This document shows positions 1-14,443 of a stretch of DNA of 14,443 nucleotides, piece by piece (the first letter of the stretch is position 1; each line of letters opens with the position of its first letter). A program made the translations under genes and the position numbers. Source of the stretch: Dendronephthya gigantea (taxonomy: Eukaryota); NCBI RefSeq assembly GCF_004324835.1, contig NW_021163311.1, forward strand, positions 138,208 through 152,650. The letters are read 5' to 3'. Below the pieces are notes generated by a model that was not told the origin of the DNA, ran no database searches, and saw only the letters and a list, made by a program, of their open reading frames with translations.

Positions 1-248
1 GGCGTGCTCTTTTCGGTGTCTCTTAGTCAAATACTTGTCTAGGGCGCGCGCATTAGTTAGAACTTAATTAAATGAAACCGTTTAATTAATAGCGCGAGCA
101 AACTAATCACGACTAACATGATATTTAAGTGACGCGCAAACGTGTATTCAAGTAATTGCACTGATGAAGGTCCGGGTTAACGGACCGAAAGCTTTGCAGT
201 ATTTAATACTTACGTGGTCCTGTACCTAACAAGTTATTATAATTAATA

Positions 249-478
249 AACTAACTTTATTTATACTGGATAGCTCTATCAGTTCTAAACTGTTCTTCCT
301 AGAGGTCAGTAAGGATCATCTCTTATTTGATCCAGTGTTACTACAGGAGGAAACCTGAACTAAACTAACTTTATTTATGCTGGATAGCTCTATCAGTTCT
401 AAACTGTTCTTCCTAGGGTCTAGTAAGGATCATCTCTTATTGATCCAGTGTTACTACAGGAGGAACCTAAACTATTTA
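249..478 (+). repeat. 114-bp satellite family, cluster 1 (about 2 units), in eIF2gamma intron downstream of exon 12
   Basis: Unit ctaactttatttatactggatagctctatcagttctaaactgttcttcctagaggtccagtaaggatcatctcttattgatccagtgttactacaggaggaaacctaaactaaa; period 114 measured between successive ctaactt. Confidence 0.9.
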
Positions 479-1698: not shown

Positions 1699-1833
1699 CA
1701 ATGAGCCTTGGTTGTGATGTGAAGTCTCGTCTTGGGATGGGTATTTTCTTGCAAATATATTCACAGATGACTTCAATGTTGTATTTCAACTGCGCCGAGA
1801 TTGGAACAACTGGAGCTCCTTCAGCAACTGTAC
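1699..1833 (-). CDS. EIF2S3: eIF2 gamma exon 8: (G)[44 protein letters not shown](V)
   Basis: Acceptor ccaaag, donor GTGAGA; matches human [45 protein letters not shown]. Confidence 0.9.
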
Positions 1834-1865
1834 CTTTGGTAAGGATAACACACAAAATTATATTT

Positions 1866-2078
1866 TGTTTCAAACTGTTCTTCTAGAGGTTTAGTGAGGA
1901 TAATCTCTTATTGATCCAGTGTTACTACAGGAGAAAACCTAAACTAAACTAACTTTATTTATACTGGATAACTCTATCAGTTCTAAACTGTTCTTCCTAG
2001 AGGTCCAGTAAGGATCATCTCTTATTGATCCAGTGTTACTGCAGGAGGAAACCTAAACAAACTAACTTTATTTATAAA
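1866..2078 (+). repeat. 114-bp satellite family, cluster 2 (about 1.9 units) filling eIF2gamma intron 7
   Basis: Same unit; intron is 1834-2098, so only 32 bp and 20 bp of unique sequence remain at acceptor and donor sides. Confidence 0.9.
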
Positions 2079-2098
2079 TGTAGGACAAAAGCAAATAC

Positions 2099-2257
2099 CT
2101 TCAACAAATTTCAGAATTTCTTTATACTGGTCCTTTGCTTGACTTTCTCGTACAAGATCAATTTTGTTTTGCAAGATGATAATATGTTCAAGTTTCATGA
2201 TCTCGATTGCTGCCAAATGTTCTGATGTCTGAGGTTGGGGGCACGATTCATTGCCAG
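2099..2257 (-). CDS. EIF2S3: eIF2 gamma exon 7: (A)[52 protein letters not shown](G); G4 NKID
   Basis: Acceptor ttattccag, donor GTATTT; 159 nt; matches human [53 protein letters not shown]. Confidence 0.9.
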
Positions 2258-2302
2258 CTGGAATAAAGATTGAAGAATACAGTTATGTACATGCCATAAA
2301 AC

Positions 2303-3597
2303 TGTCACTTGTCAACTCTCATGCAACTCTTGTTCTGGTTTGATCAAGCAATGATAGTTGATGAAACTCTCATGTAAACTCTCACTTGTCAACTCTCATG
2401 CAACTCTTGTTCTCGTTTGATCAAGCAATGATAGTTGATGAAACTCTCATGTAAACTCTCGCTTGTCAACTCTCATGCAACTCTTTTCTCGTTTGATCAA
2501 GCAATGATAGTTGATGAAACTCCCATGTAAACTCTCGCTTGTCAACTCTCATGCAAGTCTTGTTCTTATTTGATCAAGCAATGATAGTTGATGAAACTCT
2601 CATATAAACTCTCGCTTGTCAACTCTCATGCAACTCTTGTTCTCGTTTGATCAAGCAATGATACTTGATGAAACTCTCATGTAAACTCTCGCTTGTCAAC
2701 TCTCATGCAACTCTTGTTCTCGTTTGATCAAGCAATGATAGTTGATGAAACTCCATGTAAACTCTCGCTTGTCAACTCTCATGCAACTCTTGTTCTCGTT
2801 TGATCAAGCAATGATAGTTGATGAAACTCTCATGTAAACTCTCGCTTGTCAACTCTCATACAACTCTTGTTCTCGTTTGATCAAGCAATGATAGTTGATG
2901 AAACTCCCATGTAAACTCTCGCTTGTCAACTCTCATGCAACTCTTGTTCTCGTTTGATCAAGCAATGATAGTTGATGAAACTCCCATGTAAACTCTCGCT
3001 TGTCAACTCTCATGCAACTCTTGTTCTCGTTTGATCAAGCAATGATAGTTGATGAAACTCCCATGTAAACTCTCGCTTGTCAACTCTCATGCAACTCTTG
3101 TTCTCGTTTGATCAAGCAATGATAGTTGATGAAACTCTCATGTAAACTCTCACTTGTCAACTCTCATGCAACTCTTGTTCTCGTTTGATCAAGCAATGAT
3201 AGTTGATGAAACTCCCATGTAAACTCTCGCTTGTCAACTCTCATGCAACTCTTGTTCTCGTTTGATCAAGCAATGATAGTTGATGAAACTCTCATGTAAA
3301 CTCTCACTTGTCAACTCTCATGCAACTCTTGTTCTCGTTTGATCAAGCAATGATAGTTGATGAAACTCCCATGTAAACTCTCGCTTGTCAACTCTCATGC
3401 AACTCTTGTTCTCGTTTGATCAAGCAATGATAGTTGATGAAACTCTCATGTAAACTCTCGCTTGTCAACTCTCATGCAACTCTTGTTCTCGTTTGATCAA
3501 GCAATAATAGTTGATGAAACTCTCATGTAAACTCTCACTTATCAACTCTCATGCAACTCTTGTTCTCGTTTGATCAAGCAATGATAGTTGATGAAAC
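2303..3597. repeat. 77-bp satellite array, about 17 units, occupying nearly all of eIF2gamma intron 6 (2258-3639)
   Basis: Unit tgatcaagcaatgatagttgatgaaactctcatgtaaactctcgcttgtcaactctcatgcaactcttgttctcgtt; period 76-77 measured at 2341, 2418, 2494, 2571. Confidence 0.95.

Positions 3598-5132: not shown

Positions 5133-5169
<37 letters not shown>
5108..5169 (-). CDS. EIF2S3: eIF2 gamma exon 3: (G)[20 protein letters not shown], G1/P-loop GHVAHGKST
   Basis: Acceptor ctag, donor GTATTG; near-identical to human [20 protein letters not shown]. Confidence 0.9.
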
Positions 5170-5172
<3 letters not shown>

Positions 5173-5349
5173 GAAATTAATGAAATTTACATTATTGAAA
5201 TATATTATTTCCTGCAATTGCATAAGCCTTCAGAGGCAAGATTACATCTTAAACCTGTTCATTGCAAATCCATGAAGACGTACATGGTGTAGAGAGTTGA
5301 AACTAAGTAATCATTTTAACTTTGTCATCATTGGTAGAGCAATACTAAC

Positions 5350-5450: not shown

Positions 5451-5610
5451 CATTAGCTTGCAATGCACCCAGATGTGGCCTACTTTAGTATTTTACTCTG
5501 TCTAATGTCAGATGATTTTACTCATCAGTGGAAGAGTACTGTCAGTTAATAAGTTAACAAAACTATCTGTCAGTGTCTCTTGTTAACCCATTAGCTTGCA
5601 ATGCACCCAG
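5451..5610 (+). repeat. 138-bp repeat family, copy A (about 1.15 units) in eIF2gamma intron 1
   Basis: Unit gttaacccattagcttgcaatgcacccagatgtg...actcatcagtggaagagtactgtcagttaataagttaacaaaactatctgtcagtgtctctt. Confidence 0.85.
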
Positions 5611-5980: not shown

Positions 5981-6119
5981 TCGGTGCTCATGATTGCATC
6001 AACAAGGTTTTGTTGATGAAATAAAAATGAAAATTTTTCTTGCGTAAAAAAGCAAAAAATGAGCGAAATTCTGCTTCGAGCTGATGCAATACACGAGTGA
6101 CGGTCAGTGACCATTGATC

Positions 6120-6478
6120 TCTGTAACTGGAGTGATCACGAGAGATGCACTGAGGGATAAACAACACTGGAGTGATAAAAGAGCACCCACTGAGAGACAA
6201 GTGTAACTGGAGTGATCACAGAAGATACACTGAGAGATAAGTATAACTGGAGTGATCACAGAAGACGCACTGAGAGATAAACATACTGGAGTGATAACAA
6301 AAGACGCCCTGAGAGATAAGCACAACTGGAGTGACTACAGAAGACGCACTGAGAGATAAGTATAACTGGAGTGACTACAGCCAGACGCACTGAGAGATAA
6401 TTATAACTGGAGTGATAAAGAAGACACACTGAGAGATAAAGCATTACTGGAGTGATCAAGTGTAAGCATTACTGAAAA
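6120..6478. repeat. 40-bp minisatellite (about 9 units), 140 bp upstream of the eIF2gamma start codon
   Basis: Unit actggagtgatcacagaagacgcactgagagataagtata; actgg recurs at 6126, 6166, 6206, 6246. Confidence 0.9.
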
Positions 6479-8001: not shown

Positions 8002-8041
8002 CGAAGAACGTTTAAAATAAGAATTTGTTTACTTTCTCAGG

Positions 8042-8420
8042 CTTAGGGCGTGTTTATATGATCCCGTCTAGCCGGGACGGGATGTTTTCATCCCGCTTAG
8101 CCGGGAAACTCGCCTACGCGGATGGCGTGTTTATATGGAGTTCATTTTGTGGTGCAGGTTCCTTCGACGGCATGTTTTATTGTAGAAAACGAGTATGCCA
8201 ATATATACACATGCTCCTAATGTATGTTAATCGCGAATCATCTCGGCCAAGCGGGGATGGAGTGTTTATATGGCAATTTCTCGTCCTGTCTAAGCGGGAT
8301 CCCGGCAAGAAGTGCCGAAGAAAAGTGGTCATATAAACACTAATTAGCGTTTGTACTACAAGCGGGATCTCGGAAACTGTCCCGTCCCGGCTAGACGGGA
8401 TCATATAAACAGGCCCTAAG
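8042..8420. mobile_element. MITE (379 bp) with 41-bp terminal inverted repeats and subterminal gtgtttatatg / cccgcttagccggga motifs
   Basis: Left end cttagggcgtgtttatatgatcccgtctagccgggacggga against right end tcccgtcccggctagacgggatcatataaacaggccctaag (1 mismatch); no unambiguous TSD. Confidence 0.8.
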
Positions 8421-8650: not shown

Positions 8651-8690
8651 CTAGAAGTTTCAAATAGTTCGGATATTGTTACCAAATTTA

Positions 8691-9250
8691 GCTCCATCAG
8701 TTCTAAACTGTTCTTCCTAGAGGTCCAGTAAGGATCATCTCTTATTGATCCAGTGTTACTACAGGAGGAAACCTAAACTAAACTAACTTTATTTATACTG
8801 GATAGCTCTATAGTTCTAAACTGTTCTTTCTAGAGATCCAGTAAGGATCATCTCTTATTGACCCAGTGTTGCTACAGGAGGAAACCTAAACTAAACTAAC
8901 TTTATTTATACTGGATAGCTCTATCAGTTCTAAACTGTTCTTCCTAGAGGTCCAGGAGGGATCATCTCTTATTGATCCAGTGTTACTACAGGAGGAAACC
9001 TAAACTAAACTAACTTTATTTATACTGGATAGCTCTATCAGTTCTAAACTGTTCTTCCTAGAGGTCCAGTAAGGATCATCTCTTATTGATCCAGTGTTAC
9101 TACAGGAGGAAACCTAAACTAAACTAACTTTATTTATACTGGATAACTCTATCAGTTCTGAACTGTTCCTCCTAGAGGTCCAGTAAGGATCATCTCTTAT
9201 TGATCCAGTGTTACTACAGGAGGAAACCTAAACTATATTTATATTGGATG
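8691..9250 (+). repeat. 114-bp satellite family, cluster 3 (about 4.9 units) in last intron of the signal-peptide gene
   Basis: Five tandem units with minor variants (113-114 bp). Confidence 0.9.
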
Positions 9251-9270
9251 AACAAGATACAATAACATAC

Positions 9271-9385
9271 TTTTTCCACAGTATCTGGACAACTCAGCTT
9301 TTTTAATGTTTGATTCCTCGAACTTAACCGCAGCAATTGTTCGTCTGAATTCTTTGCCATTCACATCCATATGAATTGTCAGCAC
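9271..9385 (-). CDS. Signal-peptide gene exon 4: VLTIHMDVNGKEFRRTIAAVKFEESNIKKAELSRYCGK
   Basis: Acceptor ctactcag, donor GTATGT; open frame, phase 0 in / 1 out, consistent with exon 3. Confidence 0.6.
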
Positions 9386-9464
9386 CTGAGTAGATTAGAT
9401 TGATTTTTAAAGCTATTAAAGTGTTTAATATCCTTATGCATTCAACAGGACTCTTGATTCTTAA

Positions 9465-9885
9465 GCCCTGGTCAAACGAGAATGATAGTTGATGAGAGTT
9501 GAGAAGCGAGAGTTTGCACGAGAGTTTTCCAAACTCTCGATGCGCCGGTCAAACGAGAATGAGAGTTGAGAACGAGAGTTGATTACGGCGCGCATTAATT
9601 TCGTCCTTACTCCACTTCGTTTTGCTTTTTTTGTTTCTGCCCGTTGTTTTCAGAAGATTTCTTTTTTTTTTCAAAAAAATTGCAAACCGCTAGCTGTTTT
9701 GCAACTCTCATCAACTCTCATGACCGATCAAACGCGCCCAAACTCTCATCAACTCTCATCAAAATTTGAACCAGTTCAAAGTCAATGAGAGTTGATGAGA
9801 GTGCACGAGAGTGTATGAGAGTTCGCGGTCAAACGCAAGCGAGAGTTGCAACTCTCATCAACTCTCATTCTCGTTTGACCAGGGC
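9465..9885. mobile_element. MITE (421 bp) with about 40-bp TIR GCCCTGGTCAAACGAGAATGA.AGTTGATGAGAGTTG, flanked by TTAA on both sides (9461-9464 and 9886-9889); lies in intron 3 of signal-peptide gene
   Basis: Left cTTAAgccctggtcaaacgagaatgatagttgatgagagttg; right caactctcatcaactctcattctcgtttgaccagggcTTAAa; internal ctctcatcaactctcat subrepeats; TTAA duplication is piggyBac-like. Confidence 0.8.
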
Positions 9886-9911
9886 TTAAAGGTTTCATCC
9901 ATAAAAATTAC

Positions 9912-10276: not shown

Positions 10277-10352
10277 GGTCCTCCGGCAGAAATCGAACCT
10301 ATGCTTTTGCGATGCCGGTGCAATGCTCTTGCCACTGAGCTACAGAGGTAGC
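10277..10352 (-). ncRNA. tRNA-like Pol III element (degenerate tRNA or SINE head) with A box TAGCTCAGTGG and B box GGTTCGATT
   Basis: Minus strand acctctgtaGCTCagtggcaaGAGCattgcaccggcatcgcaaaagcataGGTTCGATTtctgccggaggacc; resembles tRNA-Ala but acceptor and T stems do not pair. Confidence 0.45.
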
Positions 10353-10841: not shown

Positions 10842-10896
10842 CTGAGAATTAATACAACAGCATTGTGAGCAATAAATTATTTATTAAATGTTAAAG

Positions 10897-11140
10897 TAGG
10901 TCACATCTGGGTGCATTGCAAGCTAATGGGTTAACAAGAGACACTGACAGATAGTTTTGTTAACTTATTAACTGACAGTACTCTTCCACTGATGAGTAAA
11001 ATCATCTGGCATTAGACAGAGTAAAATACTAAAGTAGATCACATCTGGGTGCATTGCAAGCTAATGGTTATCACAGATAGTTTTGTTTACTTGGTAATGA
11101 CAATGATCAAGTGGTGAGTAAAATCATCTGGCTGATGGAA
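10897..11140 (-). repeat. 138-bp repeat family, copy B (reverse orientation, about 1.7 units) in intron 1 of the signal-peptide gene
   Basis: Reverse complement of the unit: aggtcacatctgggtgcattgcaagctaatgggttaacaagagacactgacag... Confidence 0.85.
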
Positions 11141-12209: not shown

Positions 12210-12417
12210 GGTTTATTTGCTCAAAAAACAGATATAAAAGCGATAATATTGAACAGGAGAAGCACAGCGCGAATGCGGATTGCAATATGTAAACAGCTTG
12301 GAAAAGCTGTATAATATTTACATATTAACTCGTTGCAAGGGTGATAACTATTGTTATTAATACTATCGGTTAATAATTAATGACCATATATAGAGCCAAG
12401 ATTCAACGTATTATACA

Positions 12418-12660
12418 TATGCGGATAATCCCTTAGATAATCCGGTAAAGTTAATCCGGTAGAATTAATCAGTAGCAGTAATCAGTGAGCTCACTGGCAG
12501 TAATATCCAGATTCAACGAATGTGATCCTAAACCCTAGAGAATTAGGTTTAAAATAGATTAAGGATTAGACTAACTCGATTAAAGATTAGATTAGATTCG
12601 GTCAATGGTTAGAACTTAGAATGAAAGCTTGCATTGTAGAATATGGATATAGGATTATCT
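12418..12660. promoter_or_regulatory. Cluster of TAATCC / GGATTA (K50 homeodomain-type) motifs upstream of signal-peptide gene
   Basis: gataatccc, gataatccgg, gttaatccgg, ggattagac, aggattatc plus several TAATCA / GATTAG. Confidence 0.25.
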
Positions 12661-12739
12661 GATTTAATTTCGTTGAGATCCAGATATCCTATGTCTATGT
12701 TAATAATATATACAATGCAAGCCTTATCTAGATATGGTA

Positions 12740-13056
12740 GCCCACCCCATAGGGAACACCAGCTACATGATCAGTGATGGTACCACTACACGTTAACGAT
12801 ACCCCCCGCCCTCCTCATAGCCCACAGACGTCACTCGAGTTTTTTAAATTTCAATGAAGTAATATTACCCTCCTATATTGACCGCCAACCCACGCCACAA
12901 GGCCAGAGGGCCCCGCCCCTCCCCCTATCGCGTGCGACCCCCTCTGGCAAGCAGTTCAAGTATGCCTAAAGTACTTGACCTTTGTACGTTGGAGCTCTCT
13001 TTATATCTCATTTCCATATTTCATTGAAATTTGAATAAATATTCAATACAAATAAA
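12740..13056. promoter_or_regulatory. Bidirectional GC-rich promoter between divergent signal-peptide gene and ferredoxin gene (GC boxes ccccgcccc at 12911-12919 and ccccccgccctcc at 12803-12815, CACCC box at 12743-12749, TATA-like ctttatatct at 12999-13008)
   Basis: Only GC-rich island in window; lies between two divergent ATGs 847 bp apart. Confidence 0.55.
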
Positions 13057-13223: not shown

Positions 13224-13410
13224 GTAAGTCGATGAAAATGTATATTTAATTATGTATATATTTCACGTTTTAGTGTTTACTCGAAGTCATATGGCGATTG
13301 AGTGATTAATTAAAACGAATTCCCGTTTTTATGTAATTCTTCAATGTTCACTTGGCTATATTTTGCTAAAAAAAACGACACCAACAATAATTTTACTCAT
13401 GGGAAGAGTT

Positions 13411-13720
13411 GTTAACCCATTAGCTTGCAATGCACCCAGATGTGACCTATTTAAGTATTTTACTCTGTCTAATGTCAGATGATTTTACTCATCAGTGGAA
13501 GAATACTGTCAGTTAATAAGTTAACAAAACTATCTGTCAGTGTCTCTTGTTAACCCATTAGCTTGCAATGCACCCAGATGTGACCTATTTAAGTATTTTA
13601 CTCTGTCTAATGTCAGATGATTTTACTCATCAGTGGAAGAGTACTGTCAGTTAATAAGTTAACAAAACTATCTGTCAGTGTCTCTTGTTAACCCATTAGC
13701 TTGCAATGCACCCAGATGTG
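13411..13720 (+). repeat. 138-bp repeat family, copy C (2.25 tandem units) in ferredoxin intron 1
   Basis: gttaaccc recurs at 13411, 13549, 13687 (period 138). Confidence 0.9.
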
Positions 13721-14021: not shown

Positions 14022-14157
14022 GTGCTTGTGAAGGAACTCTGAGCTGTTCAACTTGTCATCTTATATTTGATCCGGACGAATTTGCCAAGTTGGATCTACC
14101 TGAACCAGATGATGAAGAACTAGATATGCTTGATCTGGCCTATGGTTTGACACCAAC
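14022..14157 (+). CDS. FDX1: Ferredoxin exon 3: (G)[44 protein letters not shown](T); [2Fe-2S] Cys ligands CxxxxxCxxC
   Basis: Acceptor catcgag, donor AC|GTAAGA; near-identical to human FDX1 [50 protein letters not shown]; remaining exons off-window. Confidence 0.9.
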
Positions 14158-14159
14158 GT

Positions 14160-14443
14160 AAGAGATGATCCTTACTGGACCTCTAGGAAGAACAGTTTAG
14201 AACTGATAGAACTATCCAGTATAAATAAAGTTAGTTTAGTTTAGGTTTCCTCCTGTAGTAACATTGGATCAATAAGAGATGATCCTTACTGGAACTCTAG
14301 GAAGAACAGTTAAGAACTGATAGAGTTATCCAGTATAAATAAAGTTAGTTTAGTTTAGTTTCCTCCTGTAGTAACACTGGATCAATAAGAGAAGATCCTT
14401 ACTGGACCTCTAGGAAGAACAGTTTAGAATGATAAGAGCTATC
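14160..14443 (-). repeat. 114-bp satellite family, cluster 4 (reverse-complement orientation, 2.5 units or more, truncated by window end) starting 2 bp after ferredoxin exon 3 donor
   Basis: Plus strand reads agagatgatccttactggacctctaggaagaacagtttagaactgatag..., the reverse complement of the unit. Confidence 0.9.

Follow-up and report, generated by a model that had tools for sequence, protein, structure and literature searches.

An ancestral eIF2-gamma intron of the octocoral Dendronephthya gigantea occupied by a dispersed 114-bp repeat

Genes and Repeats at the Locus

The stretch of DNA analyzed here (the window) comprises 14,443 nucleotides of the Dendronephthya gigantea genome (contig NW_021163311.1, positions 138,208 to 152,650) and holds parts of an eIF2-gamma (EIF2S3) gene, a GINM1-like gene, and a ferredoxin (FDX)-like gene. 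On the minus strand, the first 12 eIF2-gamma exons, rebuilt by hand, join into an uninterrupted frame of 389 codons, the product of which is 100% identical to D. gigantea XP_028415264.1; all 11 introns between these exons display GT-AG boundaries. The numbering of intron 7, the subject of this analysis, is valid provided that the gene begins with the ATG exon at 5991. Intron 7 splits the Gly codon of KFVE-G/TVAEG, with the junctions GAAG/GTATTT and CCAAAG/GTACAG, and is flanked by the exons listed with the repeat arrays of the window in Table 1. The other introns of the gene range from 81 to 1382 bp.

Table 1. Intron 7 of eIF2-gamma, its parts and flanking exons, and tandem arrays in the window (positions counted from the first nucleotide of the window)
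Feature	Position	Strand	Details
eIF2-gamma (EIF2S3) intron 7	1834..2098	-	265 bp, phase 1, GT-AG; gene model; position and phase common to 7 orthologues
Intron 7, donor-side unique end	2077..2098	-	22 nt, GTATTTGCTTTTGTCCTACATT; not alignable to the Paramuricea clavata donor flank
Intron 7, 114-bp repeat	1869..2076	-	208 bp, 1.8 units; TRF, repeat finder, local alignment to consensus
Intron 7, acceptor-side unique end	1834..1868	-	35 nt, ...TTATCCTTACCAAAG
eIF2-gamma exon 7	2099..2257	-	...AGNESCPQ...KEILKFVE-G; gene model
eIF2-gamma exon 8	1699..1833	-	(G)...QPRLI; gene model
Second 114-bp array	247..474	-	2.0 units; eIF2-gamma intron 12, 45 nt from the donor at 519
Third 114-bp array	8689..9249	-	4.9 units; fills the GINM1-like gene intron 9271..8653; unique ends of 22 nt and 36 nt
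Fourth 114-bp array	14159..14443	+	At least 2.5 units (reaches the window end); directly after the donor GT of FDX-like intron 3
77-bp satellite	2299..3597		16.9 units; fills eIF2-gamma intron 6 (1382-bp intron, 1299 bp satellite, ~40 nt unique at each end)

The first-pass annotation of this DNA had described intron 7 as almost entirely satellite, with 213 bp of repeat between unique ends of 20 and 32 bp, and the measured lengths (208, 22, and 35) agree with it to within 5 bp. The array enters at unit phase 5 and leaves at phase 102, in the orientation that seven of the eight intronic arrays display (transcript sense TCCAGTATAAATAAAG...GATAGAGCTA). Its match to the other copies in the window is not due to chance, given 94% identity over ~200 nt. 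Both splice sites of intron 7 lie outside the repeat, in the two remaining unique ends.

Age of Intron 7

The genomic loci of seven eIF2-gamma orthologues, in which the junction was located by exact peptide matching with GT-AG boundaries, establish the age of the intron position. The Gly codon of FVxG/T(V/I)AEG is interrupted by a phase-1 intron in all seven, which comprise a sponge, an amphioxus, a hydrozoan, a jellyfish, two hexacorals, and an octocoral. The intron measures 137 bp in Amphimedon queenslandica, 648 bp in Branchiostoma lanceolatum, 215 bp in Hydractinia symbiolongicarpus, 1008 and 2135 bp in Rhopilema esculentum, 579 bp in Nematostella vectensis, 594 bp in Desmophyllum pertusum, and 348 bp in Paramuricea clavata, where 265 bp consist of the 114-bp repeat (2.3 units in the same orientation as in D. 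gigantea). The two values for R. esculentum stem from a block of eIF2-gamma (approximately residues 67–358) that occurs twice in the annotated gene range (L005, 11202-16951 vs 20323-24681), with 2135 bp at the intron 7 position in one copy and 1008 bp in the other; either the assembly has duplicated the block, or part of the gene is truly doubled.

Intron 7 thus dates back at least to the common ancestor of the animals compared, and it is an ordinary ancestral spliceosomal intron that has been colonized by repeats. The earlier suggestion that the element might have created the intron is refuted by the phase-1 intron in the same codon of all seven orthologues, and its counterpart, insertion of the repeat into a pre-existing intron, proved right, since position and phase are shared from sponge to chordates. 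The corollary that this earlier intron was only about 50 bp long finds no support in the repeat-free relatives, whose introns span 137–2135 bp at this position. A long, nonrepetitive intron in close relatives had been named as the mark of an ordinary ancestral intron; P. clavata does possess the intron, but most of it (265 of 348 bp) is the same 114-bp repeat. The 57 bp of nonrepeat sequence in D. gigantea are the two ends bearing the splice signals, and the original length of the intron at the arrival of the repeat is not inferable from what remains. Most likely, the rest of the ancestral intron was deleted or overwritten.

Other Arrays and Repeat-Filled Introns in the Window

Tandem Repeats Finder (TRF) reports head-to-tail units with a period of 114 and 93–95% matches in the window, where arrays occupy introns of three unrelated genes: eIF2-gamma, the GINM1-like gene, and the FDX-like gene (Table 1). 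The array in the GINM1-like gene makes up 561 of the 619 bp of its intron (9271..8653). For the FDX-like gene, the position of intron 3 is ancestral as well, as Desmophyllum displays a phase-2 intron in the same Thr codon (agacac/GTAAGT).

The FDX-like protein predicted by NCBI (P0132, 137 aa) ends in ...GLTPT at the donor of this intron (window 14157-14164), where read-through of the donor gives ACG TAA; the model therefore lacks the exon bearing the SRLGCQ motif, in which the fourth cysteine of the cluster resides. That exon is located downstream, outside the window. An Actinostola FDX-like model (P0137) ends at the same place. The model end could be an annotation artifact or a real premature termination in the AATAAA-bearing repeat. 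For annotators, the practical point is that the NCBI model stops exactly at the start of a repeat-bearing intron.

Intron 6 of eIF2-gamma is filled in a like manner by a different, 77-bp satellite. Over 57 nt, its unit matches with 88% identity the ~45-nt terminal inverted repeat (TTAAGCCCTGGTCAAACGAGAATGA...) of an element resembling a MITE (miniature inverted-repeat element) at 9461-9890 in a GINM1-like intron, and it is clearly derived from such a terminus. The 77-bp satellite was not found in the P. clavata locus. A 138-bp MITE-like repeat is present in both orientations at 5451-5610 (eIF2-gamma intron 1), 10886-11067 (GINM1-like intron), and 13409-13720 (FDX-like intron 1), and P. clavata possesses copies of it, 76–84% similar, in eIF2-gamma introns 1 and 6. 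Such divergence would befit an old repeat, in contrast to that of the 114-bp family. An additional element of ~380 bp with perfect-looking terminal inverted repeats of ~40 nt (GGCTTAGGGCGTGTTTATATGATCCCGTCTAGCCGGGACGGG ...) at 8040-8420, in the last GINM1-like intron, is probably another MITE.

Several further features of the window were recorded. Within eIF2-gamma intron 10, a tandem duplication of ~181 bp (736-852 vs 917-1035) copies the 5′ part of exon 11 together with upstream intron sequence at 88% identity over 117 nt; the upstream copy, which lacks a matching donor, looks like a pseudo-exon, and the exon 11 region of P. clavata is single copy. Upstream of eIF2-gamma, 130–460 bp from its start codon (5991) and presumably in the promoter, lies a 40-bp tandem repeat (6124-6456; 8.3 copies, 79% matches). 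Some 850 bp separate the starts of the GINM1-like gene (12210, minus strand) and the FDX-like gene (13057, plus strand), which are arranged head to head, and the interval 12211-13056, with a C-rich stretch at 12770-12950, is likely a bidirectional promoter region.

Among noncoding RNA candidates, a tRNA-Ala with anticodon GGC occupies 10277-10349 on the minus strand of a GINM1-like intron (ARAGORN; Rfam, 36 bits); nuclear tRNA-Ala genes of eukaryotes do not usually have this anticodon, and the copy may for that reason be a pseudogene or repeat-derived. Intron 2 of eIF2-gamma contains a match to the C/D-box snoRNA snoR122 (5167-5238, minus strand; 29.6 bits, gathering score 36, E = 0.24), which is probably due to chance because it falls below threshold and overlaps the exon 3 boundary by 3 nt. 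Rfam also retrieved weak microRNA-like matches on inverted repeats.

Shared Arrays in Other Octocorals

The arrays were compared across species at one syntenic locus and on one extra contig. In both D. gigantea and P. clavata, GINM1 is located upstream of eIF2-gamma. Five arrays of the 114-bp repeat were located on the 19.9-kb P. clavata contig: in GINM1 intron 4, in the GINM1/eIF2-gamma intergenic spacer, and in eIF2-gamma introns 3 (the only antisense one), 7, and 12. The comparable arrays of D. gigantea all lie in array-bearing P. clavata introns and in the same orientation (three of three: eIF2-gamma introns 7 and 12 and GINM1 intron 4). With 18 introns and spacers taken as targets of equal weight, the chance of such sharing is approximately C(5,3)/C(18,3) = 0.012, a value that would be lower were the targets weighted by their small unique intron length. 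Other arrays are lineage-specific, namely, those in P. clavata intron 3 and intergenic DNA and that in D. gigantea FDX intron 3. Sense orientation prevails among the intronic arrays (7/8), a bias that dissolves if the shared arrays are orthologous, as the independent count is then 4 to 1 and not significant. Most intronic arrays begin 2–58 nt from the donor, the exception being P. clavata GINM1 intron 4 (~170 nt).

The resemblance of the arrays stands against a background of deep neutral divergence. At 4-fold-degenerate sites of eIF2-gamma, 81 of 157 positions (52%) differ between D. gigantea and P. clavata, corresponding to a Jukes-Cantor distance of 0.87, and eight of ten repeat-free orthologous intron pairs score like shuffled sequences (z about 0); introns 1 and 5 retain short matches of 73–74% (z = 5.9 and 4.6). 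Intron 7, by comparison, aligns with z = 124 and 94% identity over 204 nt. The consensus of 10 D. gigantea units is identical to that of 16 P. clavata units at 114 of 114 positions, and single units are as similar between species (identity 0.889) as within them (0.885–0.90). A third octocoral assembly (GCA_949826985.1) displays five arrays in 20 kb with the same consensus (114/114), bringing the census to 14 arrays in 54 kb from three assemblies.

The boundaries of the shared arrays differ. In intron 7, the array enters at phase 5 and leaves at 102 in D. gigantea, as against 81 and 4 in P. clavata, and both unit numbers and junction phases differ between the two species in all three shared introns. 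A shared insertion junction was not demonstrable for intron 7, as the unique flanks of the two species are unalignable, and on these comparisons the arrays are candidate rather than proven orthologues.

Properties of the 114-bp Repeat Family

The family is evidently abundant in octocoral genomes. Used as a query, the translated unit retrieved ~1001 clusters of spurious ORFs from contigs of ENA and JGI. Tandem repeats, at 7.24%, constitute the largest repeat class of the D. gigantea genome (PMC6447388), and the 114-bp family seems to account for a major share of the tandem repeats in octocoral genomes. In the literature we found no description of a 114-bp octocoral repeat or of introners in Cnidaria.

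Attempts to assign the unit to a coding repeat, a structured RNA, a carrier transposon, or a viral or microbial source were negative. Its length is divisible by 3, yet each of the six frames contains at least one stop per unit, which speaks against a coding repeat. Rfam gave no match on the repeat at permissive thresholds (E ≤ 1). Nor did a structured RNA emerge, as single units folded on both strands and in two registers were no better than shuffles (z −0.1 to −0.8); by eye, only a weak 5-bp hairpin is visible. Around nine arrays, a search for the ends of a carrier transposon found no shared nonrepeat flanks, terminal inverted repeats, or target-site duplications. The 50-nt flanks of these arrays resemble one another no more than shuffled sequences do, apart from the exonic portion of the two intron 7 flanks, and no flanking direct repeat longer than 3–5 nt was found. 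Helitron-like TC...CTRR ends fit one array only, loosely and by eye. No parent element of the unit was found in 54 kb of octocoral DNA, and an exact 25-nt core was absent from a viral collection and from JGI metagenome contigs, while translated ORFs from JGI/ENA contigs exist.

Array boundaries are nonrandom. Arrays enter the unit at phases 5, 22, 113, and 58 and leave it at phases 102, 24, and 0; five of nine arrays start at phase 0–6, within TCCAGTATAAATAAAG, and three of eight end at phase 22–24. These figures hint that breakage or nicking favors a site in the AT-rich segment, and they may point to a mobile unit with preferred ends and hence to repeated insertion. Private variants are common to neighboring units of one array, and local amplification or homogenization consequently takes place. 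Counted as independent events, substitutions place the units ~2.7% per site from the consensus. An apparently invariant core at positions 22–66 disappeared under the same counting (binomial p = 0.47). In a 6-bin test, variability in the first half of the unit is ~2.3-fold lower than in the second (chi-square p = 1e-4), which is weak evidence of constraint. The sense-strand consensus also holds an AATAAA, an acceptor-like tract (TTTCCTCCTGTAG), and a donor-like GTTAGT, the same hexamer as the real donor of eIF2-gamma intron 2; in successive units, 86 nt separate the acceptor-like from the donor-like site. The most fitting description of the family is that of a dispersed, satellite-like repeat of octocorals, abundant and unusually well conserved.

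Origin and Maintenance of the Arrays

An ancestral intron occupied by the repeat is shown directly. For its filling, the explanation that we consider probable, with good confidence, is an array that predates the species split and has been maintained by turnover. An array or its seed would have been present in eIF2-gamma introns 7 and 12 and in GINM1 intron 4 before Dendronephthya and Paramuricea separated. Turnover, comprising unequal exchange within arrays together with gene conversion or (homology-guided) re-insertion, would then have held the arrays near the family consensus. As arrays expand, unconstrained intron DNA may be deleted until only the ends needed for splicing remain.

Two rival origins have to be weighed against it. 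An introner-like event, in which the 114-bp element entered coding sequence and created intron 7 with splice sites drawn from the element or from a target-site duplication, would account for an intron that is nearly all repeat and for a family found in introns of three unrelated window genes. It founders on the orthologues, all seven of which have an intron in the identical codon and phase. The AAG/GTA at both exon-intron junctions is readable as a target-site duplication, but the orthologues share the AAG/GT...AG/G junction, which reflects conserved coding sequence plus splice consensus, and no target-site duplications were found at the arrays. Similarly, the repeat in the FDX-like gene starts right after the donor GT, but that intron is also ancestral; the splice sites of intron 7 reside in unique flanks, and the entry phases of the arrays vary (5, 22, 113, 58). 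We give an introner-like origin practically no credence.

The main rival to ancient residence is recent, independent, targeted insertion. Here, an active nonautonomous element (copied, e.g., by a rolling-circle mechanism or re-integrated from eccDNA), the master of which is conserved or horizontally transferred, would in each lineage of octocorals land repeatedly in the same short intron segments near the donor, and the intron 7 arrays of the two species would not be orthologous. Units only ~2.7% from the consensus are also the expected look of young insertions, and an identical consensus in three assemblies, lineage-specific arrays (P. clavata intron 3 and intergenic; D. gigantea FDX intron 3), and junction phases and unit numbers that differ in each of the three shared introns fit the same picture. 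Clustered starts (phase 0–6) and ends (phase 22–24) would correspond to a preferred nick or termination site, and most intronic arrays lie only 2–58 nt from a donor. The sharing of intron and orientation by three of three comparable arrays, however, would demand very strong targeting, yet the arrays have no common flank motif, terminal inverted repeats, target-site duplications, or conserved nonrepeat ends. The unit is devoid of coding capacity with no autonomous partner seen, and no vector was found, the 25-nt core having no exact match in the viral collection. On balance, targeted insertion strikes us as distinctly unlikely.

Ancient residence with turnover, the preferred reading, does not by itself settle why the consensus is unchanged. 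Turnover alone is insufficient for an identical consensus, as a neutral multicopy family should drift between species. Because neither residence nor insertion explains an unchanged consensus across saturated divergence, constraint or horizontal transfer must be added to either. Judged from the sequence comparisons, the family consensus appears constrained. A stronger proposal is that the 114-bp unit is functional and under purifying selection across octocoral families, possibly as a cis-acting DNA or pre-mRNA element in view of its AATAAA and its donor-like and acceptor-like motifs, with arrays retained donor-proximally in introns of housekeeping genes since before the Dendronephthya/Paramuricea split; on present sequence data, this would be an unlikely reading.

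Relation to Known Systems

Introner elements and introner-like elements occur in Micromonas, Aureococcus, fungi, and dinoflagellates. What the octocoral arrays have in common with them is a near-identical sequence that accounts for most of the length of several introns, in genes unrelated to one another, and that favors one orientation relative to transcription. In contrast to introners, which are unit-length elements with fixed ends, the 114-bp repeat forms arrays of variable length and variable entry phase in ancestral introns, with the splice sites outside the repeat.

Long-conserved satellites, such as the BIV160-type of bivalves, have monomers that remain almost unchanged between lineages deeply diverged at neutral sites. 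The 114-bp monomer behaves likewise, with the difference that BIV160-type satellites are described mainly as long heterochromatic arrays or library members, whereas the conservation seen here concerns tiny intronic arrays at syntenic positions and spans three octocoral assemblies. Reviews give a general treatment of long-conserved satellite DNAs (PMC5615363, PMC8122249).

Tribolium castaneum possesses dispersed, euchromatic, satellite-like short arrays (PMC4675708), and those of Crassostrea gigas are carried by Helentron-derived nonautonomous elements (PMC7492417). These and the octocoral arrays belong to one pattern, in which 2–8 units of a noncoding monomer of ~100–170 bp are scattered through gene-rich DNA, often in introns, and variants are homogenized within an array. 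Unlike the Crassostrea Helentron arrays, they show no carrier-element ends, and unlike both the beetle and oyster arrays, they occur in the same introns of two species with saturated neutral sites and have an identical consensus. The Tribolium and oyster arrays, together with the long-conserved satellites of marine invertebrates, are the closest described phenomena. MITE-derived satellites offer a further comparison: the 77-bp satellite of intron 6 shows this process at work in the D. gigantea genome; for the 114-bp unit, no parent was found in 54 kb of octocoral DNA.

A tempting lead is thereby closed, in that intron 7 does not exemplify the gain of an animal intron from a transposable element; the intron is ancient, and only its filler DNA has been replaced. 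The 114-bp family offers a compact test case for the upkeep of a dispersed euchromatic satellite, whether by concerted evolution, homology-seeded re-insertion, or selection.
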